This document shows, piece by piece, positions 13,869-32,233 of a DNA stretch of 64,000 nucleotides. The position numbers and the translations under genes are program-made. The DNA lies in the IMG/VR virus record IMGVR_UViG_3300033148_004740, positions 62,473 to 126,472 of that record. One strand, written 5' to 3'. Below the pieces are notes generated by a model. The model did not search any database, was not told where the DNA came from, and was given only the letters and a program-made list of their open reading frames with translations. This DNA is from a virus. How positions within the stretch are numbered: position 1 is the stretch's first letter; every line of letters begins with the position of its first letter.

Positions 13869-13872
13869 GCGT

Positions 13873-14217
13873 TTATCCTAATGCGGCAATCATCACTACC
13901 AAGTTCTTTGCTGTAGAAGCAAATAGGGCAACGGGAGGAAAAGGAATACAGTTAGGGAACGGAGTCATCATGGTTTGAGGAATCATTCGGATCCAGTCGT
14001 TCATCTGGACAAACAAGCCTCCCATTCGAATATTCTCCGAGGTAGTACCAAAAGAGACAGAACCACCCATACTGATATAGACACCATTCTCATCTGCTGC
14101 AACGGCATTCTTCTTGTTGCCCACCAGGGCTACAGAGTTAGGGGTACACTGGAACCCTGCCTCTGCATTCTTAGTAGCTCGCCAAATTTTGAAGTTACGT
14201 TTCTGTGGATCAGCCAT
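13873..14217 (-). CDS. Putative central spike distal/tip protein
   Basis: Short beta-repeat segment (SVALVGNKKNAVAADENGVYISMGGSVSF) then a Pro-rich tail; between the OB-fold-like gene and gp25. Confidence 0.4.
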   Translation of the reverse strand: MADPQKRNFKIWRATKNAEAGFQCTPNSVALVGNKKNAVAADENGVYISMGGSVSFGTTSENIRMGGLFVQMNDWIRMIPQTMMTPFPNCIPFPPVALFASTAKNLVVMIAALG

Positions 14218-14633
14218 TAGAAAGACGTTAGACCTCCTCCCATTAATTTGTATGCTCCAGTCTTAACCTCATTCTCTCTATCTTCCTTGGTCAAGAAATC
14301 AACATCCTCGCCACCAATGATCTCAATCATGGGCTTCCTGGCCCCGTGTCTGCCACGCCAATAGATGCGACACTTCATCCCCTTGCGTACTTGTCCCCAG
14401 CGAGTAAAGACATCCTCGAGATCATTGAGCAAAGGGACGTAAGCTCCGTTAGCAATCGTCTCTCCTGTTGCATGGTCGATGACCTTGACCTGCAGGTCCT
14501 CTTTTCGAACATCTTCAATCATGCCATAGGACATTCTATCTTCAGTCACACTAGGCTGTTCGGCCTTAGTGTGAGCTCCTTCAATAGCCGTGTGGGCTTT
14601 CGAGCGAGGAGATGAATATCCAAAAGAAGACAT
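14217..14633 (-). CDS. Putative spike N-terminal OB-fold protein (gp5/gpV-like)
   Basis: YGMIEDVRKEDLQVKV...YVPLL...VRKGMKCRIYW resembles the OB-fold G.V..v....rVkV...p..G..V.v pattern; follows the hub gene. Confidence 0.5.
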   Translation of the reverse strand: MSSFGYSSPRSKAHTAIEGAHTKAEQPSVTEDRMSYGMIEDVRKEDLQVKVIDHATGETIANGAYVPLLNDLEDVFTRWGQVRKGMKCRIYWRGRHGARKPMIEIIGGEDVDFLTKEDRENEVKTGAYKLMGGGLTSF

Positions 14634-14635
14634 GA

Positions 14636-17600
14636 TTACCTCTCGGTCCCCGTTAACCAGGCAGAAAAACTACCTTGTGGTCGGAACCAGTTGTTTGGGT
14701 TGATTTTATCATACAGGTGTTCAGCGTATAGTGGGCTAGTTGCTCGAGTCCTGCTGCTCCAACGAGCAACACTCTGGGCGAAGGAACCTTTATTGCTTCG
14801 CGTCGGAACCCCACCAAGCATTGGTTTTCCTTGAAGAACCAGGGGACTGAAGCGAAGAGGGTGGGCCAATTGACTACGGGTCAATAGCTTATCTAGGATA
14901 AATGTACCAATGAAGTTATGGCGAACGGCACCAACGATAGCAGTTTTTGCCAGGGTAGTCGCCAGAGCTCCAAAAGAAACGCTTTCAGAAGATTGAGCAA
15001 ATGAGTTAGCTAAACCTTTAGCTGCGAGAGGGTTAGGGAGACCAAGACCAGGAACAAACACAGTGTGACCGCCTGTGCTGACGCCGGGCAAAGACCTTAA
15101 TCCTATCTTGTTCAAAGCATGTTCAGCAATTAGGCCCATAGCATCCATGGAAGCCATGGTAGTAACTTCGTTCACATGCACGCACATGCATGGAGTGATT
15201 TCCGTAATGAACCCATGCTGTTGCGAGAACTTATGGACGACCTGTTCTACCTCAATGGGGCCGAACATATCATTGTACTCATCAAGGACATAGCAGATGT
15301 CATAGGGCTTGATACGAGGATTCCCAATAATGATGATACTGCCACGATACCCATAGCCCATAGACTCCTTGAGCAGAGACTGGGCATACCGCTTAGCCGC
15401 TTCCTCCCCGATGCAGTTAGGATAGGACGCAAACATCTCTCTCTTCTCTTCGTCCGGGATAGCGTCATCTACCCTAAGAGTGAAGGTCTCTGCCTCGTCA
15501 AGCTTGAGGGACTGTGTCTTTTCATCCGGTGATGGTTCATCATCTTCATATTGTACGGTACAAATATTGAAGGTGTTCCAGGAGGTAGACTTTATGTCAT
15601 TGTGGATGATGTGCTGCGTGCTGGTTAGCACATGGTAGTTACGGAACGGCTTGATGATACCTCTGTCCTTCGACATCTGGAGCAAAGCTCGATTGACGAC
15701 AACCTCTCGTAGGTCATCGTCTACGGTCTTAGCCTTTCCGGTAACAATGGCCTTAACTCTCTTACTCAGAGACTGATTAGCCTTGGTAGCATCAGTCACT
15801 TCTTCAAGAGCATCTACACTCTTGTCTACAAATTTACTAACAGAATCATAAGCTCTGTCTTCTTTTCCTGTAGGCTTACGGGCAAAGTAGAGCTGGTTGG
15901 GGAGGCCAAAGAAGAGAGTCATGCGGGCACCCCAAACATCATCATAGGGGACGGGGTAGGCGATCCAACCTGGGTGGCGTAGAGTCATCTCTTGGATAAC
16001 GTCCCAAGCAGTCGCCCGATAGAGTTTGTATACTGTATTGTCGTACAGGCCATTCAGTCCAGAGTTACCAGTAGGAGCAAAGATGTTGTCGTCGGCAGGT
16101 GTAGGAATAATCTCCCACTTATTAGTCAACAAGGCACGGGACTTGTCCTTTGGGTCAGCTGGATCCCAACGACCAAAATGCGTTATCTCTGGGGCAGCCA
16201 TCATCTCTTCTAGAATTGTAGCCGTACTGGAGTCACCAGCACTGAACCAACCAGCACTAAATTCTTTGACATCTCCATAGACGTTCTGTACTAGCTCGAT
16301 ACCATAGCTCTGACAGGTGATCTCAATAATGTCGTCAGAAGGTGAGAAGGAAACATCTGTGATTACTCCATTGAGAACCTTCTCGAGCTCGTCAGGTTGA
16401 TTGTCGTACCCTAGTCTCAGCTGCATGGCAATGCCTGGCTGCAACATGAGAGAGGCAATTGGGTTCTCTAGGCCAGTATTAGCTGCGCCTGGTGCGAGAC
16501 TTTCCTTCGCTAAAGTGTCATCGGCTTTCCTTGGCTCGGTCTCTCGTCCCTGTCCCTGGAACTTCCGGTTACTAAGGACACCAGAAACATTGGTAAGTCG
16601 GATGATAGCAAGATCAGCAGGGAGCTTCTTGTTTCGGACCACCTCAATATCAACGACTGAGCTATAGCCAAAGAAGTCATCGAACTTATACTTCTTCCGC
16701 TCCCCCTCATCTGACTCAATGAAGTAGAGCTTGAAGGTAGGATAGGCTCTCATAATAGAGTAGCCCTGTGTCTTGATAAGATCCTTCTCTAGCTGCTCGA
16801 CACTCTTAGTGAACAAAGATTCGTTGGTGGGATCGAAGCCGACGATTGGGCCAGGAGACTTATGGAACTCACTATCTAGGACCTCGAGGGGAGGAAGGAC
16901 AGAAGTCTTGTTCGCATTGGCTCGGACTTCAAAATGAAGATGAGCTCCTGTCGAGTACCCTGTGTTCCCTACTTTACCAAGAGGATCTCCCTTCTTGACA
17001 TAGACTGGCTCGTTGCTCTCATAGAAACGCTTAGACAATGCCTGAATCATTGGTTCGTCTGGCCACTGGAGATGTGTGTAGACAGTGCGGTAGCCTCCTG
17101 CATGTATCAGACGAATGGTGACTGCCGTATCATGCTGCTTCAGCCGAATCTTTTCACGTAGTTTCAAAGGGTCTCTTCCCTGTGACTCTTTATACTCTCC
17201 CCAGGTCTCGTTGTAGGTAAGATACTTGTCCGGGATTACCTCTATCTTCCCATCTGCTGCGGCAAGGACCGTCAACAGTTTAGAAGTATTCCCAGGCCCA
17301 CCGTTACGGACGATGTCAATCCCTCTATGAGGAGCCGTGGAGATACCACCTCGGACCACACCGAAGTGACTAGATATATGCGTGTTCTCACTCTCAGATG
17401 TTGGCCAACCCCATTCAGGGTCTGCATTAGGATCTAGAGATGGAGGAGGCTTAACATAGGAAGAGGCAGGAAGATGGTCCAAGGTATCCTTGATTCCAAA
17501 GCGATGCTGTGCAACCTCTGCCCCGCGTGCACCTGTCATAGTCTTTTGGGGGCGAGTTTTTATGGTCTCGAGATAGAGATCTGCTCCAAGAGTAATTTTC

Positions 17601-20563
17601 TTCAGAGCCATCCCTCCTAACGTAGAGAGAGCTGACGAGAGGGCCCCTTCCTGATCGGGAGCTACGAGCACAGATTTTTTTCCAGCCTCTGTAGTACGAG
17701 AGTCAGCAGCTCGAGATTTGAGCGTGTTGATGGCTGTTTTTCTAGACTCAGGGAGAGTCTTTGATACTAGCCACTCAGCCCATTTCTTTATTCTAGTAGA
17801 AACTCTATCAGCATCACGACTGGGGCCCCCAGCAACAACATCTTCACGTATCTGTCCTGCGCGATCTGGACCAATAATTGTCCCCTCATAGACCTCTGTT
17901 AGCCAATCGTCCTCAGCCTGAAAACGCTTGTCTCCTTGTACAGTTATGATTGCAGTCTTCGCAGCATTGATTACATCGTTCCCAATCAGTTTGTCTGAGC
18001 CCTCTATCTGTGGGTTGTACAAATAGAAATCTGGATTGATCAGGCTTGCAATACCAATGTTATACAGCCCAAGGTTCTCTAGCTCATGAGTATCTTCAAG
18101 ATACTGAGCTACACGATCATAACTGTCATCCTGCTGAAGAGCGTTAACCACTTGAGAAAGAGGAAAGTCCGGATAGGCGTTGTTCCCACCGGCAGCTGTT
18201 GAAGCAGAGATAAGCTCACGGACACTTTCGAACTGCTTCAGCTCAATCAGTTCTGAGTTGAGAATGCGATCAGCTAATTCAGAGACCTTCCCAGTAAAGA
18301 GATTCATAGCCTCCTGGCCAGGACCGAGCGAAGCAATATCATGTGTCTCTTTTGTGCGATCTGCTATTAGAGTATTTAGCTGTTCTCTTTCTTCCGAAGA
18401 AAGGTCCTCTCCCTTACCAACCTTTTCCCAGAGGCCGAGAACTAAGCCAACATTCTTTTGTGGAGCTATTACTGGCTCAAAGTTAACAACACCGGCCAGA
18501 CCAGCAGTTCTGACTGGGGCACTACCAAATCCTTTCGGAGGGGGAGTTGGACCAATCTTAACCGCAGCGCGGCGTTCTTGAATAAACGGCAAGAGGTCCT
18601 CCGCTAATCTTTTCCCAGCTACTGCATTTCCATCCACAACATTAATAAGCATAAAGGCCAGATCTGCTATTGACGACTCAGTAATCAAGTTCAAATACTT
18701 TAGAACCTCCAACATAGTGAGATGTAGATAGAGCCCATATTGTGTAGCCGAATTAGCATAAGCATCTTCGGTTCCGTCCCGGGTCCCTCCATACCTATAG
18801 GAAGAAGCAACATCCCTGTTATATAGATGGATAGATCCTTCGTCATCTGGGGCCAAATCACCTGCTCCAATTAGAGGGAGACCAGCAAGCCCTAAGACAG
18901 GGCCTAAGGCTGCTGCTGCAACAGACCCAAGACCTGACACTCCTACTCTAGCCTTTCCTACTATTGGAAGTTTATCTGAATCTACACTGAAGCCAGACTT
19001 TGAGTTAAAACTAAAAGCATCTGAGACAAACTCGAGAGATTGACCAAGTACGTCGAGCACAGCATTCCTTAGCTGATAGCTAGAGGTAAACGATGTTCCT
19101 GCTACCAGTTTCTCTTGGGTCTCAGGGGTGACCGGGTTGTCGACCAGAGTGAAGACTGCACTGTAGGTTCCCGGTTTACCAGGAACAGTAGAGGTGCTCA
19201 TGTCCTCTACAATGAATTCTTTGAGCCCACAGAGATTAACGAGCTCGTTACGGAGACGTATGTTCCTCATACCAGCGGGGACCTGGCGCATCTTCCTTCC
19301 CTGGCTCTCTACCATGTTGTACCAGGTAGCAAGAGCTGCAATCCCGTCCTCATGAGGAGTCAGGATAGAAAGAGAGACGATACCATCTGTGCTTCCAATG
19401 TGTTGAAAGGTTGGATAACAGTGTCCGGTCATAGGAATGGTAGCAAGTGTATTCTCGAAACTGATTGAAATTCCTGTGATAATTAGACCCATGTCATCAA
19501 AGGCAAATACTTCCTCCTTCTGCATGAGTAACTTTGACTCTGCTCCTGTTCCTTCTCCCTTTGCTGCCTCCTCTAATGTGATATCTAGCCTGTCATGCCA
19601 TTCAATGATTGAACCACGCTTATCTGTTGTGACGTTCCAATCTGTTCCCTCTCCTACTAGGACACCCATAGAGGCAAGCTCTTTCTCCTTGCTTGCGATC
19701 TTTCCTCTGAGAACGCTCTTCACGTCTTCAAGACGAGGGGCTTCTTCAGGGAGATCGATAAAGGAGGAAGTATTCCAGACCTCTCTTACTGGGGCTATGT
19801 TCATGTCCAGTTGTTCTTTAACCTGGACGATGAGAGCACCGGGCATTCCAGCAAATTCACTTGTTCCAATCGCTGGAGTGAACTGTGTATACTTCACTAT
19901 CTCGCTGTCCATCTCTTTGAGGGCAGCTATGTCGCTCCTTAGAGCATTGAACATCTTCTTAGCGACTAGCATGTACTGGCTGACAAACATCTCTGTACCA
20001 GGAGTAGAGAGGTGACCCACTTCAGCGTCTCCAGGATAGGGACCGCGCATCTGCTCAGCCTTATAGAGGAGCCTCCAAGCCTTAGAATGCTTAGGGTTCC
20101 GGACGCCCTTGGGAATGAAGATGTCCTCACGGAAGATGAAGTCGTTAGAATAAGGGAAGTAATTGAACCAGGAAAACATTAGATTCAGTGTGAGAACATT
20201 AGTATCTGAACCAGCAGCATCAACTATCTCGAGCTGCTTGAGTGCAAGAACCATGGCTTGGTCATTCTTATCGTTGGCGAGACCTAGGACACTCTTACGG
20301 ATGAAAGCATTCTCAACCCAGCAGAAGGGAGTGACGCGAATCTGGGAGACAAGGTCACGTAGCTTCTTTAGCTCATCACCTTGATCAACTATCTGAATTG
20401 TGACAGCAATATCAATCTGTGAGTATTCAGAGCTCAGCTTGATAGACGAACGGGTACGCAGAGTCGACCAGTAGTTGTTACTGGAGTTCCTCATGACCCT
20501 GATGTTCTCTGGAGGAACTACAAAGTCAATGTCGTTGATTTGGAAACTGCCGGTATCGGTCAT
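14636..20563 (-). CDS. Baseplate hub (gp27/gpD-like) fused to N-terminal tube-fold-like domains and an internal M23 zinc endopeptidase, 1975 aa
   Basis: M23 motifs PHRGIDI, LAAADGKI, TVYTHL, VKKGDPLGKVGNTGYSTGAHLHFEV (about 16925-17340). Hub motifs MQLRLGY...VLNGVITDV...IEITCQSYG and GSIIIIGNPRIKPYD...IEVEQVVHKF...FITEIT. Confidence 0.85.
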   Translation of the reverse strand: MTDTGSFQINDIDFVVPPENIRVMRNSSNNYWSTLRTRSSIKLSSEYSQIDIAVTIQIVDQGDELKKLRDLVSQIRVTPFCWVENAFIRKSVLGLANDKNDQAMVLALKQLEIVDAAGSDTNVLTLNLMFSWFNYFPYSNDFIFREDIFIPKGVRNPKHSKAWRLLYKAEQMRGPYPGDAEVGHLSTPGTEMFVSQYMLVAKKMFNALRSDIAALKEMDSEIVKYTQFTPAIGTSEFAGMPGALIVQVKEQLDMNIAPVREVWNTSSFIDLPEEAPRLEDVKSVLRGKIASKEKELASMGVLVGEGTDWNVTTDKRGSIIEWHDRLDITLEEAAKGEGTGAESKLLMQKEEVFAFDDMGLIITGISISFENTLATIPMTGHCYPTFQHIGSTDGIVSLSILTPHEDGIAALATWYNMVESQGRKMRQVPAGMRNIRLRNELVNLCGLKEFIVEDMSTSTVPGKPGTYSAVFTLVDNPVTPETQEKLVAGTSFTSSYQLRNAVLDVLGQSLEFVSDAFSFNSKSGFSVDSDKLPIVGKARVGVSGLGSVAAAALGPVLGLAGLPLIGAGDLAPDDEGSIHLYNRDVASSYRYGGTRDGTEDAYANSATQYGLYLHLTMLEVLKYLNLITESSIADLAFMLINVVDGNAVAGKRLAEDLLPFIQERRAAVKIGPTPPPKGFGSAPVRTAGLAGVVNFEPVIAPQKNVGLVLGLWEKVGKGEDLSSEEREQLNTLIADRTKETHDIASLGPGQEAMNLFTGKVSELADRILNSELIELKQFESVRELISASTAAGGNNAYPDFPLSQVVNALQQDDSYDRVAQYLEDTHELENLGLYNIGIASLINPDFYLYNPQIEGSDKLIGNDVINAAKTAIITVQGDKRFQAEDDWLTEVYEGTIIGPDRAGQIREDVVAGGPSRDADRVSTRIKKWAEWLVSKTLPESRKTAINTLKSRAADSRTTEAGKKSVLVAPDQEGALSSALSTLGGMALKKITLGADLYLETIKTRPQKTMTGARGAEVAQHRFGIKDTLDHLPASSYVKPPPSLDPNADPEWGWPTSESENTHISSHFGVVRGGISTAPHRGIDIVRNGGPGNTSKLLTVLAAADGKIEVIPDKYLTYNETWGEYKESQGRDPLKLREKIRLKQHDTAVTIRLIHAGGYRTVYTHLQWPDEPMIQALSKRFYESNEPVYVKKGDPLGKVGNTGYSTGAHLHFEVRANANKTSVLPPLEVLDSEFHKSPGPIVGFDPTNESLFTKSVEQLEKDLIKTQGYSIMRAYPTFKLYFIESDEGERKKYKFDDFFGYSSVVDIEVVRNKKLPADLAIIRLTNVSGVLSNRKFQGQGRETEPRKADDTLAKESLAPGAANTGLENPIASLMLQPGIAMQLRLGYDNQPDELEKVLNGVITDVSFSPSDDIIEITCQSYGIELVQNVYGDVKEFSAGWFSAGDSSTATILEEMMAAPEITHFGRWDPADPKDKSRALLTNKWEIIPTPADDNIFAPTGNSGLNGLYDNTVYKLYRATAWDVIQEMTLRHPGWIAYPVPYDDVWGARMTLFFGLPNQLYFARKPTGKEDRAYDSVSKFVDKSVDALEEVTDATKANQSLSKRVKAIVTGKAKTVDDDLREVVVNRALLQMSKDRGIIKPFRNYHVLTSTQHIIHNDIKSTSWNTFNICTVQYEDDEPSPDEKTQSLKLDEAETFTLRVDDAIPDEEKREMFASYPNCIGEEAAKRYAQSLLKESMGYGYRGSIIIIGNPRIKPYDICYVLDEYNDMFGPIEVEQVVHKFSQQHGFITEITPCMCVHVNEVTTMASMDAMGLIAEHALNKIGLRSLPGVSTGGHTVFVPGLGLPNPLAAKGLANSFAQSSESVSFGALATTLAKTAIVGAVRHNFIGTFILDKLLTRSQLAHPLRFSPLVLQGKPMLGGVPTRSNKGSFAQSVARWSSRTRATSPLYAEHLYDKINPNNWFRPQGSFSAWLTGTER

Positions 20564-20569
20564 GCGCTC

Positions 20570-23500
20570 CTACCCGAATATCTTGTCAGCCATAGTGTAT
20601 GGATTGTTGCTAGACCTACTGTCCCTGACGTTTAGATTAACAGAACTTCCACCACCCGTCATCCCCGATATAGAGGAGGCCAGGCTAGATGGAGTCACCA
20701 TGAAGTTGGATCGAGCTCGAACATGTGCTCGTGTACGAGGAGGACCAGCCAAATGTACAGCATTCTGATGCATCATACCAGGGGCAGAAGGAGAACCCAT
20801 CTGGGCAGAGACCTGCATATCGTCTTGCTTCATGCGACCAGCTCCCTTTCCTCTATTCAGACTCACTCGTGTCTGCATCCCTCGTCCTGAGCCTACAGTC
20901 TCATTAGGAGAAGAGAGAGCAAGGGACAGAGCGATAGCACCAGCAAGGCCATAGCCAATAGGCTTATGGTGACGGATCATCCCGCGCCCTGCCTTGCCTA
21001 GCAAGTTCTCTATCGTCCCTCGAGCCCCAACAGCTTCTCCCATTGCGTGACCACCAGAGAAGCTCACAGTCTGTAGGAACTGCTTAATCGCACCAGGCTG
21101 GAACAATCGTCCACCAGTGCCACTGATCAGCTGAGCCTTAGCGAGCTCTCCAGATTTTTCAAACTTGTGTAGTGACGACATGAGTCCCTTAGCGGTTCCC
21201 TCTACGTCAATGCCACTTAGTTTGTTTCCAAGACTAAAGCCCAAAGCCTTCTCTGCGTCACGAGCTCCAGAGATAGCCAGGTCCTGACTCAATAGCTTTT
21301 GGCCAGCGGTCCCCGGCTTAACAATCTCGTTGATCTCTCCGATTAGAGAGGTGGCATCCCGCTGAGTAAATGAGCGACGGATAGCTTCCATCTGTGCTTC
21401 AAAGGAAAGGGTCTTCTCTCCAGCAATATGTTTACCAGAGATAGGTGTCTGTTCTAACCACTCGAGCAGGAACTGAGCATCAGCTAATTTCTTCCCTTTC
21501 ATATGCTGGAGGGAAGCTCTGCGGGCTGTAGTCAATTCAGTGGAGAGGAAGGGGACCTCGCGTTGAGTAATCCCCAGCTTTGCGATATCTCCATATACGT
21601 TCTTCTCTATTTGTGCCAAGGTCATAGCCCCTGCGCTCTTCTTAGCCTTAACTAGCTGTAGCCTCATCTGATGCTGAGCATAGGCAACCTGGTATTCGTT
21701 ACCAGCCATTTGGTTAAAGTGGGCCAGCTGTTTAGCTGACTTAGGGCTAACCAAGAATGCAGACAAGGCATCAGCGTCTTTATCAGCTGCCATACCTAAC
21801 ATAGGAGAAAGATTCATCTGGTGGACCTCTCCACCGATGTTCATGCGGACCTTCTTCTCTGCTACAGCAATACTGTCCTCGAGAGTATCTACTGCCTCAA
21901 ACATTACAGGCTGTAGAGAGAAGGCCCCAATAAGTGGGTCACGAGCCACCATTCCCTGTACCTTTCCTGTGCTCTTGAACTGCTCGAACATCTCGGTAAG
22001 CTCTGAGCCATACATGCCAGTGCGTCTCATCTCACCAAACATATTCTCGATGTGGCTCTTCGATATGCCAACAGTGTTTAGGTCAGTGGGAGTATAGTTC
22101 CCTATCTGGGAAACTGCTTTGAGGCGTCGAGAGCCAGTGACCTTTCCTCTTAGAAAGCCACCAAGGCCTTTACCAGCAGGGGCTGCTTGGCCTGCAAGCT
22201 CAGCCATTGCTTTCTTCATATAAGAGTCCATGGCCCCTGCGCCTAGATCACCAGAAGCAAAGGCTCCACCTCTCTCTGCTATACGGTGATAGACGTCAGG
22301 GAGGTAACCGGCAATCTTCCCGGTAGGTGTAGCATGCGGCTGCATAGCTGGGGTATTGACACCTGGGACAAAGACATCTGGGCGTCCCTCTCCCATCTTC
22401 ATCCACCCTCCACCGCGTTCAATGAAGTTCTGGAAATCACCTCGAGAATATGGATGCTTAGAAACGTCCCAGTCAGCAGTACCAGGCATACTAATCTGGC
22501 CCTGCATAGAAGAAAGACTCTTAGTGATATCTTCAAAAGCAGACACTTTCTCAGGAGAGGTAATAGCAACTCGGCGAGCGAGATCATCTGCTAGTTCACT
22601 TGCAAACGGAGTGTCTCTATACGGAGCTCCTTCAAGGATATCAAACACACGAGGTTCAATATTTCCCAGGCCTCCTACGCCCTCGTGAGGTCCACCCCAC
22701 GTAAGCTGAGCCCCACCAACAGCAATGCCACGGAACATTTCGCGGAAAGTCTGCGTACTGGTAACACCTGCACTGGAGGCCATTTGGTATGCTGCCTTAG
22801 CTCCAAACACTTTGGGAACAGCACCAAAGATTCGACCGAACTCCTCTCCAGTAACATTCCCGTGTCTGACAGCAAATCCCATGGCCCTCTCAACAAAAGC
22901 TTGTTGAGACTTCTGTGTACGATCCCAAGTGTGAGCAAACGACAGGGGCTTACGCATGAAGCGCTCTCCCCATGGGCCGAGATCCTTATCTAACATAGTC
23001 TGGTACATACCAGTCATGATCTGTTTGTTCAGCTTGGCCGGATCTTTTACAAGGTCATCGAAGGATGCGAGTACATCTACTGGAGCTCGCATTCCGAATC
23101 CACGGCCAGTAGAGAAACGCATCAGGTCGTCTTCAGTAAATCTAGCGAGAGCCTTTAGGTCACCAAACCACTTCTCTTGCTGACCAAGGCGACGACGATT
23201 CATCTGCCACAGTGTGACAAAGTCTCCCTTATTAACGTCTTTGAAATTCTCGATGCCCATGATGGCACCCTCTGCAGCTGAAGGGGCGGTGACCAATGCT
23301 CCAGTCTTTGCGCTCCTTCCAAGAACAGTACCTGGAGCAACAGTCTCTCCTGCACGAATTGCGTTCATTACGTCTCTGTCTACAGCAGTAAGATGAGTAG
23401 AAGTAGCATACTCTTGTTGCATGATACCTTTAACGCGAGAGCTCATAAGAGCTTCACCCTCATTAACCCCTAGTCTCTCTAACTCGCCAGCATACTTCTC

Positions 23501-24871
23501 TGGATCGACATAGGCTGTTGTAAGGTAAGGGGCAGAGGCATAAGCTTCCCGAGCTGCTGTGTCAAAGGCTCCTAGCTCAGCGACGGAGGCTGCTCGAGCT
23601 TGAGCTTCTCCTGTGTATCCCCACGCACGAACTGCCTGTTGTGGCGACCTTCCCATTGCTGTGCGACGTGGCGTTGGGTACAAATCAGCGATGTCGAATG
23701 TTTGTGCCCGGCCCTTTGATACACCAGTTGCACCCACTCCACCAAACAGTTTCCTCTCTTCCATAATCGACATGTACTCAGCAGTCCTAGGATCTCTAGT
23801 AGAAGCTTTCCAATTGAATGGTCCCGTCTGATCAACTGCCTCTGTCGCTATTCTGATATCAACTTGCTGGCCACGAAAATCTCTGTAGCCTTGCATCCAT
23901 GATGGTTCTAATCCTTCTGGCATATTGGGCAGTGTCTCTAGTTCACGGAAGATAGAAGTGCTCATCGATTTGATGGCAACATCGAGCTCACCTTGAGAAC
24001 GAATGCGACCTTCTTTGAGAGCAGGCATAATAGTTGTTTCAAATTCTCTCAGGAAATACTCATGGCGAGCCATCGACTTGTACTTGAAACCGCCTCCGTC
24101 TTGAGGCGTAGCAAGAAGAATATCAGGAGAGATATAACGAGTCTGGAGAGACTGGCCCATGAGCATGGTCCCATCACGGGTAATAGGAAGATTGAACCCT
24201 ACCTCGAGCCCTCCTGCTGCTTGCCAATGAAAACGATAGGCTTCTCCAGGAAGGCCTGGGCGTGTGATCTGTTGAGCGAGCCCCCCTGTTGCTCCAAGAC
24301 CTTTTGTAATATCATTGAAATAACTAGAGACTCCGGGAATCATATCCACAGGGTTAATGGTCGAGGGCTTGAGCCTCAATTCGCGAACAGAGGAGATGTC
24401 TGGAAGGTTTCCTAGCTTGGACTGCTGCCAGCTGAGGACATCTACGTTCTCTCTGAAACGCGCGGTCACCCTCTGCATCAGGTTAGACTGGTTACGACCT
24501 ACCGTCTCTCTAATAGCCGTATATACGTCCTGAGGATTCTTATAGGTTCCTAGCTTTGAGGTAAAGGACAGGAGCTTCTGCTTGGACATAGGATCTGCCG
24601 CTGCCATAGCTTGTTCCCATGCCTGTTGGGCTACCCGTGCCCCTTCCTTCTCTAGGAAGAACTTCTCCTTACCTCCCATATAGCGTAGGAAGTCAGCAAC
24701 AGAAGCCTCCCCTTTAGCAGCAGAGCCTGTTCTCATAGCTCCTAGAAGAGAAGAGGTAGTACCTACTTCTGTGGTACCTGCACGGGATTGCCTTACAGCA
24801 GCCGCTACACCCGCTACAACAGGAGCACCTATGATGGCAGACTCTAGTAGACCTGGGCCGTCATTAGCCAT
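20570..24871 (-). CDS. Single-chain two-barrel (beta+beta'-like) RNA polymerase with hydrophobic N- and C-terminal segments; putative virion RNAP, 1433 aa
   Basis: Colinear degenerate RNAP motifs: RRTAMGRSPQQAV, GVNEGEALMSSRV, IRAGETVAPGTVLGR, RRLGQQEKWFGDLKAL, PVDVL, GGLGNIEPRVFDIL, LPDVYHRIAE, FLRGKVTGSRR, LNTVGISKSHIENMF, MVARDPLI, MAADKDADAL (21770-21784), VPFLSTEL, EQTPISGKH. Confidence 0.85.
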   Translation of the reverse strand: MANDGPGLLESAIIGAPVVAGVAAAVRQSRAGTTEVGTTSSLLGAMRTGSAAKGEASVADFLRYMGGKEKFFLEKEGARVAQQAWEQAMAAADPMSKQKLLSFTSKLGTYKNPQDVYTAIRETVGRNQSNLMQRVTARFRENVDVLSWQQSKLGNLPDISSVRELRLKPSTINPVDMIPGVSSYFNDITKGLGATGGLAQQITRPGLPGEAYRFHWQAAGGLEVGFNLPITRDGTMLMGQSLQTRYISPDILLATPQDGGGFKYKSMARHEYFLREFETTIMPALKEGRIRSQGELDVAIKSMSTSIFRELETLPNMPEGLEPSWMQGYRDFRGQQVDIRIATEAVDQTGPFNWKASTRDPRTAEYMSIMEERKLFGGVGATGVSKGRAQTFDIADLYPTPRRTAMGRSPQQAVRAWGYTGEAQARAASVAELGAFDTAAREAYASAPYLTTAYVDPEKYAGELERLGVNEGEALMSSRVKGIMQQEYATSTHLTAVDRDVMNAIRAGETVAPGTVLGRSAKTGALVTAPSAAEGAIMGIENFKDVNKGDFVTLWQMNRRRLGQQEKWFGDLKALARFTEDDLMRFSTGRGFGMRAPVDVLASFDDLVKDPAKLNKQIMTGMYQTMLDKDLGPWGERFMRKPLSFAHTWDRTQKSQQAFVERAMGFAVRHGNVTGEEFGRIFGAVPKVFGAKAAYQMASSAGVTSTQTFREMFRGIAVGGAQLTWGGPHEGVGGLGNIEPRVFDILEGAPYRDTPFASELADDLARRVAITSPEKVSAFEDITKSLSSMQGQISMPGTADWDVSKHPYSRGDFQNFIERGGGWMKMGEGRPDVFVPGVNTPAMQPHATPTGKIAGYLPDVYHRIAERGGAFASGDLGAGAMDSYMKKAMAELAGQAAPAGKGLGGFLRGKVTGSRRLKAVSQIGNYTPTDLNTVGISKSHIENMFGEMRRTGMYGSELTEMFEQFKSTGKVQGMVARDPLIGAFSLQPVMFEAVDTLEDSIAVAEKKVRMNIGGEVHQMNLSPMLGMAADKDADALSAFLVSPKSAKQLAHFNQMAGNEYQVAYAQHQMRLQLVKAKKSAGAMTLAQIEKNVYGDIAKLGITQREVPFLSTELTTARRASLQHMKGKKLADAQFLLEWLEQTPISGKHIAGEKTLSFEAQMEAIRRSFTQRDATSLIGEINEIVKPGTAGQKLLSQDLAISGARDAEKALGFSLGNKLSGIDVEGTAKGLMSSLHKFEKSGELAKAQLISGTGGRLFQPGAIKQFLQTVSFSGGHAMGEAVGARGTIENLLGKAGRGMIRHHKPIGYGLAGAIALSLALSSPNETVGSGRGMQTRVSLNRGKGAGRMKQDDMQVSAQMGSPSAPGMMHQNAVHLAGPPRTRAHVRARSNFMVTPSSLASSISGMTGGGSSVNLNVRDSRSSNNPYTMADKIFG

Positions 24872-27800
24872 TAGAACCAGTCCCTCCTAGCTAAGCTATT
24901 GTAGTTAGGTTGTTCGTATACCTGCATTTGAACGGAATCTGTACCAGCAGGATCGAAGACTGTTCTCGTAAACACGTCTCCCTCCATCCGGTTTGTCATT
25001 AGTAACCCACTGATTCTATCATGGATTTCCCCTCGAGACAGAGTTCCCTCTCCTACAATAGGTTCAATTGCCTGATTATTAATGTAAGGCTTGTTAGCCA
25101 TAGCCTGTGCTCGGCCTGGCCAGAGGTCATACTCGTGCATATCCTCTCCCCAGTTCTGAATAACCTTTAGCTTTACGTCATCAAGGTCCACAGAAGGGTG
25201 CCACCCTACCCAGTCTGGGCCAGGAAGGGTAGATAATTGGGTCAGCAAATGGGTCTTGCGATACCAATCGCCATAGTTTTCTCCAGGTGAACGACTCTGC
25301 AGGTATGCCGAGTTCAGATCTTTGCTTGTCGGGAAGCCTTCAGTAGCAGCTTCATCGTAAATCTTGTCGATGAGCACGTCTGCTTCAGCTAATTCAGAGC
25401 CACTGAGCAGTTCATCCTTCTTCGCGCGACGTACTTCGTCCGCAAACATGACCTTCCACTGTGCAACATACAGTGCTTTTTCGTTTCGAGGGACCATCTC
25501 AAGGATCTTGGCACGTTCAGCTTCGGTTTCTGCACCTGCAAACGCGTTGAAGTAGTCTCGATCACGTCTCGGTAGAGCTCGGAAGATGGCACTGAAGTTT
25601 CTCGTGTACGGATTCAGACCAAATAGGGTCTGGTCCTTCTGACTTTCGAACTCTCGGAGTGCTGCAGAGTCCTGATTCTCTCGAGCAATGTTAGATAGAC
25701 GAGAGTATTTCACATATTTTAGGACATCAAAGTAGTCTTCGAGCTCACGACGACGTGCAATGTGACTGGGAACTCCTTCATATCCAACAGCTTGTGCCCC
25801 TAACCAGAACGATGGGCGCATGAAGTCACGGAAAGGATGGTTCCAGAATGCATTCTCGGTTCCATAAAGCTGAGTTCTTTCATAGTGCTCAATAGCAGTA
25901 CGCTGGTGAACCAGCTTAGCACCAGGAGAGATAGGTGTCATCTGGTCCAATGCAGTCTCGGCATTGTGAGACAAGGCCTCCCAGTAGCCACCGAAGTACT
26001 TTGCAAATAGGCCACTTTCTCCATCCTTGTCAGCCTTGAGTCTATTTATAGCCCCTATGATATTGGAAGAATCTTCCCCATCGTAATAAACCTTATCTCC
26101 AAAGAGCCCACCAGTAGAGGTAAGGTGCTTATATTCCTGGAACTCTACCCTAGTCTTCTTCTGCTGCAGCTGGTCCTGGGTCTGTTGGAATACCATCTCC
26201 TGACTCTCAGTCCAGCTCTCCTCCTTACGGGCCCTATTCACCATCCTAAGATGGTCTTTATAGTTCTCTGTATAGGGAGCAACATCAGCTAGTATCTTAT
26301 ACTTGTGAATTAGTGGGTAGTCCTCTGGGGAAACACCTTCGAGCTCTGGGTAACGGGCCTCATAACCTCGTCCTGGGAGCCGTAGCTCGCCCTCAGGGAT
26401 CTTTATATAGGGGTCACCATGTAGGAAGTCTGGAGACTTCGACCCGGGGCCTGGGAGCCATCCTGGCATCATGTTTGGAATCGGGTTGTACAGGGGGATC
26501 TGGCGACGTCTATGGGGGTACAAACGACGGAAGGCTTCTGTAGTACCCATGAGTCCACCAAGCTCGAGGTCCCAGTAACTACGCTCAAAACCAAACATAC
26601 GACGGGCACTCTCAAGCCTCTGTGTTTGGTCAAACCAGTCTGGGGTACCAGTCATCTGCTCTTTCATACTCATCATAGTAAAGCCTGGAAGACCTATCAT
26701 CTCCTGTAGGCGATAGATCTGTTCACCGACTATACCTGTTGTGTCATATGGAGTAGTGGGGACACCTCCGGGTGTCTCCCCAATCTCTGTAGCAATCCTC
26801 TGTCCGAACCTAGGAGGCTCAACTAGAGCTCCTTCTGAAGAGAGCCAGTCATCTTCGTGCATGATACGCTCAGGTTTGATAGCTCTGCCAACAGTCGCAG
26901 CAAGCAATGGTCCGACAAAGGGGACATCTTCAAGTGGCAAAGCGGAAACAGGGTATGGGCGCTCCTCATAATGTTTCTCTTCTAGGGCATAGGTGAACTC
27001 AGACTGGAACCAACGCTGGATCGGAGACAGAGCTTCTGCGTCATCGCCCCAGATACCTTCGTTCTTTGCATCCATCCTCATGCGTGCGTACCAGTGAGGA
27101 CGGAAGTAGGCAATGCGTTGTCCCTCAAAAGCTGATCGACCAAACTCCCACCAACGACCACGGCGAACAGGGACTTCCTGTGCTCCAGAGTAGATGGCTT
27201 CGAGTTCTTCAGGACTCTTCTCTGGAATCAGAGAGCCTGGAAGGAAAGGTACGATTGATAGTGCGCCGGCAAGACCGCCGATGATACCTGCCAGCTTGAC
27301 TGGACCAACCTTTCTGAACAGCTTGAAGGAGAGCTCACCTGTTCCTTCGGCAACTGGCTTCGCAATTCGACGCCAGAGATCTCCCATCTTCCCAGGGCGA
27401 GCATAGATACCAGACTCTTGAGTAAGAGAGCGACCCCACTGAGCAAGGCGAGTTTGTTTTCCATACTCAGATGCCCACTCTTCAGCTGCGGCTCGAGCTT
27501 GTACTGCAGTGGCTCCCCGGGTTTGTTCCCGAGCCATGTACCCAACCTTGAGACCATAGGCTGCGCCGGTACCGAACATGGCTCCCATCAATGGGAAGGC
27601 CATTAGTCGAGAGAAGTCTGTGCTACCAGGGGCAAGATCCTCTTGCCAATTCCTGTAGTCCTGTAGTCCAGTAGCCTGAGCAACTCGAGATGCTAGCAGG
27701 TTAGCTCTGGTGATAGCTGTGCCGGCAGCAACTGAAGTTCCCTCTTCGAGAATGGTCCCTTGAGTTAGAGCGCTCCCACTGGTCATCCAGTCCAGTGTCT

Positions 27801-28773
27801 GGTAACCCATGTAGGCGAGAGGAAGATAGAGACCATACTTTTTGAGCAGGCCTCCCATCATTCTGCCACCAGTAGATTCTGGTACTGCTAGTGTTGGCCT
27901 GATTCCTTTACCAAAGATCTTCTCAGTAGCCTTCTCAACAAAGCTTTGCCCTTTGGAGAAAGCAGTATCGAATGGAGGCATCTGTGCAGGGAGACGAAGG
28001 AGAGTATTAAAACGGGAAACCATAGCGGTTCCCCAGGCGCTTGCATGTCTCCAGGCTGCCTGTCCTCTAGTGTGTCCACCTACTACTGTTGTGGGCATAC
28101 CTCCTACGAGAGGAGGCTTGAATTCTGGGAACCCTTTAAGAGGTTGCACCTTACCGTAGAAGACTTCTGGATTATCGACTGGGGCTCCAACTACACGCGC
28201 CCACGAAGAAGTTAGCTTAGCGCTAGCATCTGGAGCAGTTCTGATCCCAGAAGCAAAAGGCAGTGCGACTTCGTCACTCTGTCCCCAGAAGAGCTTCGAG
28301 TCTCTGAATGCTAGACCCTCAGAGAGGACACGGCGGTAGGTAGTCCCAACACCAGGGTAGTTGCGCTTACCTATTAGTGAAGTGTAGTACTCGGCAAGCT
28401 GTTTTGTCCCTGTTCCCTCGGCCGCAAACAACGATGGTGGCAGCTGGAAACCAGCTCGGGTTGATGTCTCAAACTGTGAGAGAAAAGGACCAGCAGAAAA
28501 TGTACGAAAGATATGAGCAGGAGAGTACTCCTCGAGGACACGAGCTCCTCGAGCATACAGGTCCCAGACACGACCACCTTTCCAAGGAGCATACCCAAGA
28601 GCTACTACTCCTGCAACAGCTCCAGCCTTACCGAGCATGCCAGTTGCTGGATAGTCTTTCCTATAGAAATCTTCTTGCTGGTCGGCTGTCCACATAGGTG
28701 GAGATCGACGAGGATCTTGCAAAGAAGACCCATAATAAGGGCGACCATAACCTGGAGTATAATTATCTGGCAC
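24871..28773 (-). CDS. Tape-measure-like / DNA-ejection membrane protein, 1300 aa
   Basis: Immediately follows the two tail-assembly chaperones (the canonical TMP slot); several Gly/Ala-rich hydrophobic segments (GAVAGVVALGY, YGLYLPLAYMGY, LMAFPLMGAMFGTGAAYGL, LAGIIGGLAGALSIVPFL); helical C-terminal half. Confidence 0.6.
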   Translation of the reverse strand: MPDNYTPGYGRPYYGSSLQDPRRSPPMWTADQQEDFYRKDYPATGMLGKAGAVAGVVALGYAPWKGGRVWDLYARGARVLEEYSPAHIFRTFSAGPFLSQFETSTRAGFQLPPSLFAAEGTGTKQLAEYYTSLIGKRNYPGVGTTYRRVLSEGLAFRDSKLFWGQSDEVALPFASGIRTAPDASAKLTSSWARVVGAPVDNPEVFYGKVQPLKGFPEFKPPLVGGMPTTVVGGHTRGQAAWRHASAWGTAMVSRFNTLLRLPAQMPPFDTAFSKGQSFVEKATEKIFGKGIRPTLAVPESTGGRMMGGLLKKYGLYLPLAYMGYQTLDWMTSGSALTQGTILEEGTSVAAGTAITRANLLASRVAQATGLQDYRNWQEDLAPGSTDFSRLMAFPLMGAMFGTGAAYGLKVGYMAREQTRGATAVQARAAAEEWASEYGKQTRLAQWGRSLTQESGIYARPGKMGDLWRRIAKPVAEGTGELSFKLFRKVGPVKLAGIIGGLAGALSIVPFLPGSLIPEKSPEELEAIYSGAQEVPVRRGRWWEFGRSAFEGQRIAYFRPHWYARMRMDAKNEGIWGDDAEALSPIQRWFQSEFTYALEEKHYEERPYPVSALPLEDVPFVGPLLAATVGRAIKPERIMHEDDWLSSEGALVEPPRFGQRIATEIGETPGGVPTTPYDTTGIVGEQIYRLQEMIGLPGFTMMSMKEQMTGTPDWFDQTQRLESARRMFGFERSYWDLELGGLMGTTEAFRRLYPHRRRQIPLYNPIPNMMPGWLPGPGSKSPDFLHGDPYIKIPEGELRLPGRGYEARYPELEGVSPEDYPLIHKYKILADVAPYTENYKDHLRMVNRARKEESWTESQEMVFQQTQDQLQQKKTRVEFQEYKHLTSTGGLFGDKVYYDGEDSSNIIGAINRLKADKDGESGLFAKYFGGYWEALSHNAETALDQMTPISPGAKLVHQRTAIEHYERTQLYGTENAFWNHPFRDFMRPSFWLGAQAVGYEGVPSHIARRRELEDYFDVLKYVKYSRLSNIARENQDSAALREFESQKDQTLFGLNPYTRNFSAIFRALPRRDRDYFNAFAGAETEAERAKILEMVPRNEKALYVAQWKVMFADEVRRAKKDELLSGSELAEADVLIDKIYDEAATEGFPTSKDLNSAYLQSRSPGENYGDWYRKTHLLTQLSTLPGPDWVGWHPSVDLDDVKLKVIQNWGEDMHEYDLWPGRAQAMANKPYINNQAIEPIVGEGTLSRGEIHDRISGLLMTNRMEGDVFTRTVFDPAGTDSVQMQVYEQPNYNSLARRDWF

Positions 28774-30169: not shown

Positions 30170-30973
30170 TTATAGCAAATCCCTTGCGATAAAGGAATAG
30201 GCCTCCTGGATTGGGAGGCCATCAATAGCCACTTGTTTTGATTGACCAAGAATATAAACGTCTTCTAGCTTCTGGACAGTGTGGTGGATATTATCATCCC
30301 CCACATAGTCTCCAAAAGCGACATAGATGTCAAAAGGATTCAACGCTGGATCGTCAACATGTCGACCCATCCCTGTGTCAACAGTAATGGATCCTATATT
30401 TTCCTTCTTTGGTGCGCCCCAGACTCTGTTCTCGAACATCTCAAAAGCATTCTCTGCTCTACCTACTTTCCCAGCGGCACGTTGAGAGCTAGAGAAGCCC
30501 GTTAAAGAAGCATGGGCAGCTAGCTCTTGTAGCTGATCGACAGGGAGCCCGAGATTACCATTAATGACTTTTTCAATATTTGCCGTAACTGTCTCTTCTC
30601 CAATATACTTTCCCTTGTCTGATTTCACAGCAGAGAAGGGAGTAAACTCGCCCTTTACTAGAGCCTTATAGCGTTGTAGGACAAGCCACAAATAGCCAGC
30701 CTCTTTGAAGTTGATAGTGAACTGGCCCTGTACAATTACGTTCCCCTCCGCCACGGCGTCAAATAGACGAGAGGCATATCCATAGAGAGGAGTACGAGAC
30801 TGAGTGACAGCATAAGACATACTAGTGACCTCATCTATAAGTACATCGCCAATATAGATAGCCACCTGTGCGCCCGAGAAGTAATCATTGTTGTAGATAC
30901 CCCTTCGGTCTAAGGTAGCCCCATGAGTATCCCAAAAGGATTTCTCTGATTCGCCCTGAGGATCAATAGCCAT
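30170..30973 (-). CDS. Tail tube-fold protein (tube initiator, gp48/gp54-like)
   Basis: YFSGAQVAIYIG...VTSMSYAVTQSRTPLYGY...EGNVIVQGQFTINF parallels the major tube motifs. Confidence 0.7.
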   Translation of the reverse strand: MAIDPQGESEKSFWDTHGATLDRRGIYNNDYFSGAQVAIYIGDVLIDEVTSMSYAVTQSRTPLYGYASRLFDAVAEGNVIVQGQFTINFKEAGYLWLVLQRYKALVKGEFTPFSAVKSDKGKYIGEETVTANIEKVINGNLGLPVDQLQELAAHASLTGFSSSQRAAGKVGRAENAFEMFENRVWGAPKKENIGSITVDTGMGRHVDDPALNPFDIYVAFGDYVGDDNIHHTVQKLEDVYILGQSKQVAIDGLPIQEAYSFIARDLL

Positions 30974-32178
30974 TAGAGCCTTCTCCCTGAGCGCCTAAGC
31001 CCCATACTCTCCAGGTATCTAACATATCTTCTTCCACCTGCTACAAGAAGCTCGGACGCAGTCCTTTCTCTTCCTTTACTCCAAATACCTCTATCATTCT
31101 GAGAGAGCTTCATTCTGCCTACAGAGGTCATGATGTCTACATCTCGAGCGACAAAGTTAATCACCTGTTCTGTCAGTAGATCTTCTACGGACATAGTAAC
31201 TCCATCATTCATGAACTCAACACCATAGATCCCCATACGGGAAATGGAACCATATTCATTAGCGAAGAGAACGGTAAGATCCATTGGAGGAAGTTGATCA
31301 GGAATGAGAGTTGAGACTTCAGTATCTGCTCCCATTTCTCCTGCAGTCCTGGCGTCTCCCATCGCACGAATCAAGGGAGCAAGGGCATGCTCATTGAAGA
31401 GAGTGAAGATCATCGAACCACCAATAGTCCTAGGTCCACGGGTATATCCCTTTACATAGCCTTGGCCCAGAGCCCTTACCCCCATCTTCTCACGGTGGCT
31501 CTGGACACTGATAGTCTGTAGGGTAGCCAAAGTAAGAGTATTGGTAGCTGCATCATCCATCTCTTTGATGTGATCAATGCGGCGCTGTAGGCCATCCTTG
31601 ATGAACTGATGTTCTGCCTTCATAGCAAAGGCTACACGAATCATTCTCTCGTACCCAGCTGCAGAAAAGCCGTGTCTGTTGAATATTCCGAGGACGATAG
31701 GAACAGCAAGATCCTTAGCTGGACTGTCTGTCCCGTCTGCGGCACCTCTTATATATAGACCAGCAACTGTGAGAAAGTGTCGCTTGAGATCCTCATAGCT
31801 AGAACGGATGACGGCGTCAACATCCAGCGGATTCATGTTGTTGATGATATTCTCACAAGCAGCTACAACCTCTACTGAGGTATCGACCTCTTCCTTGAGA
31901 GCCGCGATCTGTACGTCCTTGTCCACTCTGCCGTACAAATGGGCCACAACCTTGATGTCGCTTCCAGAAAAGCTACTACCAACCCACTTGATCTCACTAT
32001 GTTTGTCTTGTTCGACAGGAAGATTATCCTTTTCTCTATGATATTCCTGTCGGATTAAGGCAGGGAAAGAGTCTTCTTGAAGGAGGACTTCACCGGGTTG
32101 GAACTGTTGCGCCTCGACGGCAGCAAGATCAGGAGGGCCAGAGTCTGATTTAACATTGATTGGTCGATCGCCTGGCAT
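30973..32178 (-). CDS. Tail tube-fold protein with a large helical insertion
   Basis: SSFSGSDIKVV ... (about 130-aa insert) ... LQTISVQSHREKMGVRALG..YVKGYTRGPRTIGGSMIF...DQLPPMDLTVLFANEYG...IYGVEFMNDG.TMSVEDL. Confidence 0.75.
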   Translation of the reverse strand: MPGDRPINVKSDSGPPDLAAVEAQQFQPGEVLLQEDSFPALIRQEYHREKDNLPVEQDKHSEIKWVGSSFSGSDIKVVAHLYGRVDKDVQIAALKEEVDTSVEVVAACENIINNMNPLDVDAVIRSSYEDLKRHFLTVAGLYIRGAADGTDSPAKDLAVPIVLGIFNRHGFSAAGYERMIRVAFAMKAEHQFIKDGLQRRIDHIKEMDDAATNTLTLATLQTISVQSHREKMGVRALGQGYVKGYTRGPRTIGGSMIFTLFNEHALAPLIRAMGDARTAGEMGADTEVSTLIPDQLPPMDLTVLFANEYGSISRMGIYGVEFMNDGVTMSVEDLLTEQVINFVARDVDIMTSVGRMKLSQNDRGIWSKGRERTASELLVAGGRRYVRYLESMGLRRSGRRL

Positions 32179-32189
32179 CAGAACTCCTT

Positions 32190-32217
32190 GTGAGAAGCAC
32201 CGGGATTAACCGATGCT
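32190..32217 (-). terminator. Stem-loop downstream of the major tube gene (probable terminator/attenuator)
   Basis: Minus strand AGCATCGG-TTAATC-CCGGTGCT (8 bp, one G.U) followed by TCTCAC; weak U-tract. Confidence 0.45.
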
Positions 32218-32233
32218 CCTCTGTATCTTAGAA

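Follow-up and report, generated by a model that had tools for sequence, protein, structure and literature searches.

We analyzed a 64,000-nucleotide stretch of viral DNA (positions 62,473 to 126,472 of IMG/VR record IMGVR_UViG_3300033148_004740), hereafter called the window, which forms the second half of a 126,472-bp viral contig with a CheckV completeness of 66%. On its minus strand lies P0001, a single open reading frame (ORF) of 1433 amino acids (aa). Its product resembles the beta and beta' subunits of RNA polymerase joined in one chain. The start codon of P0001 shares bases with the stop codon of the upstream gene (TAATG), and 6 nt separate it from the downstream gene. An earlier reading of the DNA (the original prediction) had proposed a polymerase at 21420-23760 of the window; this interval corresponds to residues ~371-1150 of P0001 and lies entirely within the one ORF. 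The parts of the gene are as follows, with conservation given as counts in a 112-sequence alignment of the family:

20570..24871, minus strand: P0001, whole gene (1433 aa, single ORF), a beta-beta'-like RNA polymerase in a single chain whose C-terminal end is tape-measure-like.
24791..24856, minus strand: N-terminal hydrophobic segment, aa 6-27, from a Kyte-Doolittle scan; predicted local distance difference test score (pLDDT) <50 in the model.
24422..24709, minus strand: N-terminal helical bundle, aa 55-150.
22547..24343, minus strand: beta/Rpb2-like module, aa 177-775, with a beta-type double-psi barrel at ~aa 449-745.
23153..23173, minus strand: Lys pair K567 and K573, family motif KxFGxxK, on the adjacent model strands E565-570 and E574-579; conservation 109/112 and 107/112.
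22649..22657, minus strand: E739-P740-R741, conserved closing strand of the beta-type barrel; conservation 110/112, 107/112 and 112/112.
21053..22504, minus strand: beta'/Rpb1-like module, aa 790-1273.
21734..22156, minus strand: beta'-type double-psi beta-barrel, aa 906-1046, with RGKxxGSR (R908/G913/S914) and RxP (R977/P979).
21770..21784, minus strand: catalytic Asp triad D1030-x-D1032-x-D1034, family motif GDxDAD, aligned to NADFDGD of beta'; conservation 112/112, 112/112 and 111/111.
21503..21598, minus strand: bridge-helix-like long helix, aa 1092-1123, from DSSP of the model, inside the Rpb1/beta'-aligned range; S1110 kept in 109/111.
21365..21496, minus strand: trigger-loop-like helical hairpin, aa 1126-1169, LEWLEQTPISGKH, helices 1126-1148 and 1151-1169, with K1147/H1148 at the tip; conservation 110/111 and 104/111.
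20906..20974, minus strand: Gly/Ala-rich hydrophobic segment, aa 1300-1322 (KPxGxG...LSxP), with near-invariant G1308, L1319, S1320 and P1322; low confidence in the second model.
20573..20737, minus strand: C-terminal module, aa 1379-1433 (xVRA...VNxNIRDxRSS), common to the tape-measure-slot proteins of cultured relatives.

Relatives of P0001 were collected by an exhaustive phmmer search with residues 370-1150 against 1.84 billion cluster representatives. The family comprises 148 clusters at 50% identity (~150), of which 107 matched at E <1e-30, and most are 1430-1590 aa long. The clusters looked up were all metagenomic and none had a functional name, the entries being unnamed or 'hypothetical protein', as had been anticipated. 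One relative, G001, has a genome of 188,653 bp rated 100% complete and carries exactly one copy of the family. Conservation was analyzed in alignments of 51-112 relatives, 19-58% identical to P0001. The best-conserved columns of the 112-sequence alignment were those of the proposed catalytic residues. Besides the Asp triad, the Lys pair, E739-P740-R741 and K1147/H1148 (counts above), they include R908 (103/112), G913 (108/112), S914 (107/112), R977 (110/112) and P979 (112/112). The motif strings quoted in the original prediction were all found in P0001 (15/15), in the proposed order and positions; for instance, RRTAMGRSPQQAV spans aa 402-414 (nt 23630-23668) and MAADKDADAL spans aa 1027-1036.

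A weak sequence-level link to cellular RNA polymerase was obtained for the beta' half. Compared with E. coli RpoC by hhalign, the family profile gave one match, of aa 843-1039 to beta' 249-469. Its E-value was 1.3e-3 with the entire profile and 2.3e-4, at a probability of 44%, when the beta' half was used by itself. The alignment pairs LPDVYHRIAE with LNDLYRRVIN, RGKVTGSRR with LGKRVDYSGR, VGISK with CGLPKKMALELF, RDPLIG with NRAPTLH and ADKDAD with NADFDGD, so that five of the E. coli motifs proposed on the beta' side are aligned in register. For aa 1040-1200, the range of the bridge-helix-like helix and the trigger-loop-like hairpin, hhalign gave no match to RpoC.

An AlphaFold2 model of residues 1-1200, computed from a 51-sequence alignment and no templates, had a mean pLDDT of 88 and a predicted template modeling score (pTM) of 0.87. 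A second model, of residues 760-1433, had a pLDDT of 79 and was disordered at ~1271-1341 and 1352-1378. In Foldseek searches of the PDB, the best 50 matches to both models were all RNA polymerase beta or beta' chains, with bacterial, plastid, poxvirus, Pol III, AR9 and phiKZ non-virion enzymes represented. Note that 6VR4 (crAss gp66) and PolD were absent among the matches listed, which says nothing against similarity to them. The two double-psi beta-barrels that had been postulated were recovered by structure prediction and search, and family conservation together with these models also recovered the Asp triad, the Lys pair, the bridge-helix-like helix and the trigger-loop-like hairpin. In the model, the 32-residue helix 1092-1123 and the hairpin 1126-1169 lie where a bridge helix and a trigger loop would be expected, and P0001 superposes across both barrels on the single-chain proteins QDE-1, RDR2, gp62 and gp96. 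This superposition indirectly supports an arrangement of the predicted barrels like that in real two-barrel active sites, with the Asp triad and the Lys pair facing one site. Neither outcome named with the original prediction as refuting it was seen. Taken singly, each half of P0001 has its nearer structural relatives among the multisubunit enzymes, with the QDE-1/YonO/gp96 group more distant. The motif pattern is more than chance, because the residues are conserved at 19-58% identity, hhalign aligns the family with RpoC and the structure searches return only RNA polymerases.

The polymerase core spans residues 177-1273, a mixed alpha/beta structure in the models, without the long helical ruler body of a tape measure. 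The predicted presence of a polymerase is supported, but its proposed extent of aa 370-1150 (780 aa) was too short for a core of ~1100 aa. The core takes in elements of the beta N-terminal lobe and hence is not especially 'minimal', as it had been called. Nor is it a domain hidden inside a tail protein: the polymerase is most of the gene, and the resemblance to tape measures is confined to the last ~150 residues. The ~160 residues after the core consist of a hydrophobic segment, a disordered spacer and the terminal motif. The hydrophobic part, the Gly/Ala-rich segment of aa 1300-1322, is a candidate membrane-inserting element.

We conclude with high confidence that P0001 is a homologue of the two-barrel RNA polymerases and that its catalytic site is intact. 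Judged from the sequences and the models, it is also likely to be a catalytically active polymerase, which would use DNA as its template. In such an enzyme the beta/Rpb2-like module would provide the Lys pair K567/K573, and the beta'/Rpb1-like module would provide the Mg-binding triad D1030/D1032/D1034, the bridge helix and the trigger-loop hairpin with K1147/H1148. The two-barrel fold is also that of nucleotidyltransferases with another template or product, such as a QDE-1/RDR-like RNA-dependent RNA polymerase (RdRP), a primase-like enzyme or a PolD-like DNA polymerase. We regard such an activity as very improbable for P0001: its sole sequence-level link is to bacterial beta', no PolD chain was among the structural matches listed, the virus has double-stranded DNA, and G001 has its own Pol III alpha.

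With respect to classification, P0001 had no match above gathering score to Pfam RNA_pol_Rpb2_6 (PF00562) or RNA_pol_Rpb1_2 (PF00623), and no match to PF05183 (RdRP, YonO/QDE-1 type). The Rpb models also found nothing in six-frame searches of the contig itself and of five relatives' records. Because the Pfam definitions of the multisubunit and of the YonO/RdRP families both failed, the P0001 family is a separate family within the two-barrel superfamily.

The genes around P0001 are all structural and in the same orientation. From the head genes to the baseplate they are:

59477-61516: terminase.
53879-56488: portal.
49061-50290: major capsid protein.
32937-34841: tail sheath.
30170-32926: three tube-like paralogues.
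24871..28773, minus strand: upstream giant ORF of 1300 aa, no Cys, a homologue of 0305phi8-36 gp145 by BLASTP.
14636..20563, minus strand: downstream giant ORF of 1975 aa, a baseplate hub with an M23 peptidase and a homologue of gp147, by Pfam, PHROGs and BLASTP.
13398-14633: small baseplate genes.
12162-13385: Baseplate_J.

Judged by its terminase and sheath, this phage is nearest, among cultured phages, to Moorella MTATph1, to Bacillus 0305phi8-36 with its relatives, and to Acinetobacter vB_AbaM_ME3 (ME3). The 1300-aa protein matches the virion protein gp145 in collinear BLASTP segments (E 2e-22, 9e-20 and 5e-10). The 1975-aa protein matches Pfam PF01551 (E 4e-10), hub-type PHROGs and, by BLASTP, gp147 (E 7e-28). 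In the 0305phi8-36 record gp145 is a virion protein by mass spectrometry and gp147 is the baseplate hub; between them lies gp146, a 'hypothetical tape measure protein' of 2537 aa that is likewise a virion protein by mass spectrometry. Because its flanking ORFs are homologous to gp145 and gp147, P0001 occupies, on sequence grounds, the tape-measure slot in a contractile tail module like that of 0305phi8-36. The order of giant gene, polymerase, M23 giant, small baseplate genes and Baseplate_J is kept in relatives at 25-29% identity.

The C-terminal module, a basic strand followed by hNxNIxDxxS, is common to the P0001 family and gp146 (hhalign E 2.3e-4, HMMER E 1.1e-5), and it is all that P0001 shares with gp146. 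Moorella MTATph1 CDS0031 also ends in this module (hhalign E 1.5e-4, HMMER E 6e-4). Both the slot and this C-terminus would suit a structural tail protein, a tape measure or tube plug, that has kept a polymerase-derived fold and lost catalysis, and no other candidate tape measure was found in the window or in G001. However, the Asp triad, the Lys pair, RxP, GS-R and KH are near-invariant in the ~150 clusters, and because this holds down to 19% identity it argues for selection on catalysis. We consider a purely structural role extremely unlikely.

Several further observations were made on this module. A hidden polymerase in gp146 or gp145 was considered and rejected, as neither contains DxDxD and gp146 has no polymerase similarity. 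In MTATph1 the slot gene is apparently split by a transposase, CDS0028, and the 313-aa downstream piece, CDS0031, keeps the C-terminal module (L026:13513-20869); CDS0027 gave no hhalign match to the family profile. The three ORFs past the sheath (30170-32926; 230, 401 and 267 aa) all match phrog_9206, 'major head protein', and their 0305phi8-36 and ME3 counterparts are the tail tube and its paralogues, so that the PHROG label appears to be mistaken. Between the head and tail genes, a 1374-aa ORF (37208-41332) belongs to no Pfam or PHROGs family. The upstream 1300-aa protein had no informative ESM Atlas match. Some homologues of the upstream gene carry inteins, with an Intein_splicing match in L004:3249-7601 and ribonucleotide-reductase-intein-like and endonuclease PHROG matches in L012:3351-9686. 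The PHROGs matches of the upstream-gene homologues were intein- and endonuclease-related only, and the 1300-aa copy in the window is without an intein.

We next considered amino acid composition. No Cys was found in any of 63 aligned members of the P0001 family (63/63), nor in the 1300-aa neighbor. The same holds for 0305phi8-36 gp145 and gp146, ME3_35 and ME3_36, MTATph1 CDS26 and CDS27, and the 5002-aa P23-45 gp96. For comparison, the hubs contain 8-19 Cys, the YonO-like gp99 contains 10, E. coli RpoB 7 and RpoC 15. The other proteins of the window average 0.55% Cys, giving P ~4e-4 for one Cys-free protein of 1433 aa. The absence of Cys from all 63 diverged members points to selection. From this pattern, and from no established rule, we infer that Cys absence could mark proteins that cross the tail and an oxidizing periplasm. 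The proteins of the first two giant slots are thus Cys-free in the window (20570-28773) and in three cultured relatives, as is gp96; the loci compared with the window are L003:13288-28296, L025:10787-24237, L038:6382-14984 and L026:7649-17442. Lack of Cys may generally mark proteins that are ejected or lie in the tail lumen.

A precedent is gp96 of P23-45, a virion two-barrel RNA polymerase fused to the tape measure that transcribes pre-early genes (PMC10770324). Based on analogy to gp96 (PMC10770324), and on the slot, the C-terminus, the hydrophobic segments and the Cys-free composition, we propose that P0001 acts in three steps. The Cys-free protein would be built into the virion by its tape-measure-type C-terminal end, beside the baseplate hub. 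Upon tail contraction it would be ejected before or with the DNA. It would then transcribe the first genes of the entering genome, with no need for host RNA polymerase. That P0001 is virion-carried and injected for early transcription appears rather more probable than not, and for the combined proposal of a single-chain polymerase that is carried, injected and active early our confidence is good, a little above that for the packaging step taken singly.

The main task of an injected polymerase might instead be that of a motor, drawing the genome into the cell by transcribing it, with gene expression secondary. For T7, genome entry is driven in this way, the E. coli and T7 RNA polymerases pulling the DNA in by transcribing it. 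The hydrophobic N- and C-terminal segments of P0001 and the membrane-type segments in both of its neighbors would fit anchoring at an envelope channel. Coupling of transcription to DNA translocation has also been proposed for gp96 at the tape-measure pore (PMC10770324). Such a role is compatible with early gene expression, and nothing here tells the two apart; as the main function of P0001 we consider it improbable.

The occurrence of other polymerases bears on when the enzyme would act. Within the contig itself (66% complete), neither PF00562 nor PF00623 matched, and P0001 was the sole copy of the family. PF00623 (Rpb1_2), PF04542 (sigma-70 region 2) and PF05183 (RdRP) had no match in the five relatives' records, including G001. 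PF00940 (T7-type) also had none in the relatives, but none of 14 control genomes matched either (0/14), so that this result is uninformative on absence. The large plus-strand genes of G001 encode a ClpB-like protein, an AAA protein, ribonucleotide reductase and Pol III alpha, and no P0001-type polymerase. As observations in passing, at least three G001 genes, for an AAA ATPase, the ribonucleotide reductase large subunit and Pol III alpha, contain inteins (L030:9357-17439 and L031:3077-7096), and a TnpB/Cas12f-like gene lies at L031:15563-16714.

Since G001 is without another recognizable polymerase or sigma factor, the enzyme could serve beyond the early phase. P0001 might then be an active two-barrel polymerase that is not packaged, encoded among late genes and acting intracellularly, perhaps in middle or late transcription, in the manner of phage polymerases that are not virion-borne. 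This appears unlikely, though less so than the motor role. The gene is held in strict synteny between a virion-protein homologue and the hub, with a start-stop overlap, and its product carries the tape-measure-like C-terminal module. It lacks Cys as do gp96 and the slot proteins, in contrast to the 10 Cys of gp99, whose record has no virion note. Moreover, an enzyme made only late cannot begin the infection cycle. We favor the injected polymerase, acting in early transcription.

We also searched for viral proteins of similar structure. The best Foldseek match in BFVD was A0A8S5SD80 (E 1.2e-11), a 'minor tail protein' of an uncultured siphovirus. This entry is from Siphoviridae sp. ctnpt50, and the alignment has ~1430 columns; the match suggests that further polymerases may be hidden under tail annotations in gut-metagenome phages. 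A crAss-type 'RNA dependent RNA polymerase' of Podoviridae sp. ctxqo3 was a weaker match (E 3.8e-5). Two matches were to ME3: A0A172Q021 (E 9e-9), which is split into pieces of 801 and 802 aa, and A0A172Q0S6, of 798 aa (E 2.3e-7). ME3 gene 36 (AND75197.1) is a 'hypothetical protein' of 1603 aa encoded between the gp145-like ME3_35 and the hub ME3_37; A0A172Q021 is tied to it by organism and length only. The gene 36 protein contains LKFFSVGSK, SREP, GGDHDQDQ and a C-terminal NARLNITD, has 0 Cys and matches the beta barrel of the family weakly by hhalign (E 1.8e-3). It is too diverged for tblastn or HMMER to match it to the P0001 family. ME3 gene 36 is probably a distant cultured member of the family in the same slot, which makes the proposal directly testable. 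In the literature searched, no polymerase of ME3 is described.

The only 798-aa ORF of ME3 (L052:4453-6849; record 224453-226849, minus strand) lies near the right genome end and fits A0A172Q0S6 in length, which has a TM-score (template modeling score) of 0.50 to the model. The ORF encodes 9 Cys, has no strict DxDxD and no Pfam match, and may be a second, non-virion polymerase.

A number of observations weigh against our interpretation. P0001 and its family are known from sequence, predicted structure and gene position alone. A folded polymerase of 1100 aa is an odd occupant of a tape-measure slot, with respect both to the setting of tail length and to passage through the tube. The virion polymerases of phiKZ and N4 sit in the head, and gene position is no proof of a location in the virion. 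The C-terminal match to tape-measure-slot proteins is short (45-70 residues) and weak (probability 44-51%). Upstream of 76 G001 genes, no repeated promoter-like motif was detected by exact 8-mer enrichment; the only word found was ribosome-binding-site-like, but the scan was crude and promoters are still possible. P0001 had no match in Pfam at E up to 1 and none in PHROGs, and the PDB sequences returned nothing, either by phmmer with P0001 or by hmmsearch with the family profile; tblastn of P0001 against 50,697 phage records likewise gave no match. By hhalign, neither residues 1-1200 of gp96 nor gp99 showed similarity to the family profile. E. coli RpoB gave no hhalign match either, to the whole profile or to its beta half. 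The equivalences to RpoB that had been proposed on the beta side, including that of K567/K573 to E. coli beta K1065/K1073, thus found no signal at the residue level and are supported by conservation and fold match.

An interpretation that goes further is that, in a widespread lineage of large contractile-tailed phages that includes ME3, a complete, Cys-free beta-beta' fusion polymerase has taken the place of the tape-measure gene. This would be the closest of the single-chain phage polymerases to the cellular multisubunit enzymes and the only polymerase of the phage, stored in or at the tail lumen by its tape-measure-type C-terminus, threaded through the tube upon contraction and refolded at the membrane. 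We regard this as possible but doubtful. If true, nature would have supplied a minimal model for the core of cellular RNA polymerase, together with a folded enzyme that has taken the role of a tape measure.

Virion-carried two-barrel RNA polymerases are so far established in few phage groups, namely the phiKZ/AR9 jumbo phages, crAss-like phages and P23-45-like siphoviruses. If our proposal is true, ~150 unannotated clusters put an injected polymerase into a large contractile-tailed lineage. Its slot raises the questions of how tail length is set and how an enzyme of ~160 kDa passes a contractile tail. The compact beta-beta' core of ~1100 aa, more cell-like than QDE-1 or gp96, would be useful for studies of minimal RNA polymerases and of their evolution. 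In the literature searched we found no publication on a tail-slot polymerase family of this kind. In a survey of jumbo phages, only two group 3 phages outside group 1 encode RNA polymerase (PMC7824862); ME3 is named there once.

Single-chain two-barrel RNA polymerases of phages are known, as the original prediction had stated, from P23-45 (gp96 and gp64) and phi14:2 (gp66) (PMC10770324) and as YonO-like enzymes (PMC7824862). The closest parallel to P0001 is gp96 (P23-45; also P74-26, G20c and TSP4; PDB 8H2M/8H2N), which is likewise a Cys-free single-chain two-barrel protein in the tape-measure position, with hydrophobic segments and a metallopeptidase associated. However, the polymerase of gp96 forms the N-terminal part of a long siphovirus tape measure of 5002 aa in total, which also includes the peptidase, whereas P0001 is a separate 1433-aa gene of a contractile-tailed phage with a large genome, and its M23 peptidase is encoded in the next gene, that of the hub. 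Unlike gp96, P0001 does not combine a polymerase and a long tape-measure body in one chain. The gp66 polymerase of phi14:2 (PDB 6VR4) is virion-carried, single-chain and two-barrel, and lies within a large protein whose gene is grouped with structural ones (PMC10770324); it belongs to a podovirus lineage and is likened to P0001 by description. The YonO-like gp99 of 0305phi8-36 matches PF05183 (1.2e-18), whereas P0001 does not; it is encoded near the genome end, contains Cys and has no virion note in the record, in contrast to the Cys-free P0001 in its tail slot.

The best structural matches to both halves of P0001 are the multisubunit beta and beta' subunits of bacteria, plastids, archaea, eukaryotes, poxviruses and African swine fever virus (ASFV), together with the AR9 (7S00/7S01) and phiKZ (7OGP/7OGR/8QUE) enzymes. 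The order of the P0001 motifs is that of beta'. The beta C-terminal subunits of AR9 and phiKZ match aa 393-734, placing their split point at ~aa 392 of P0001. In contrast to the multisubunit enzymes, P0001 is one chain, beta then beta', of ~1100 aa rather than ~2700, and is encoded in a tail module, with no other subunit genes recognized. Since it has no cysteines, it lacks their Zn-binding elements. Nevertheless, while gp96 is described as flat and clampless, the P0001 model has elements of the beta N-terminal lobe and of the beta' N-terminus, which bring it nearer to the multisubunit beta and beta' subunits.

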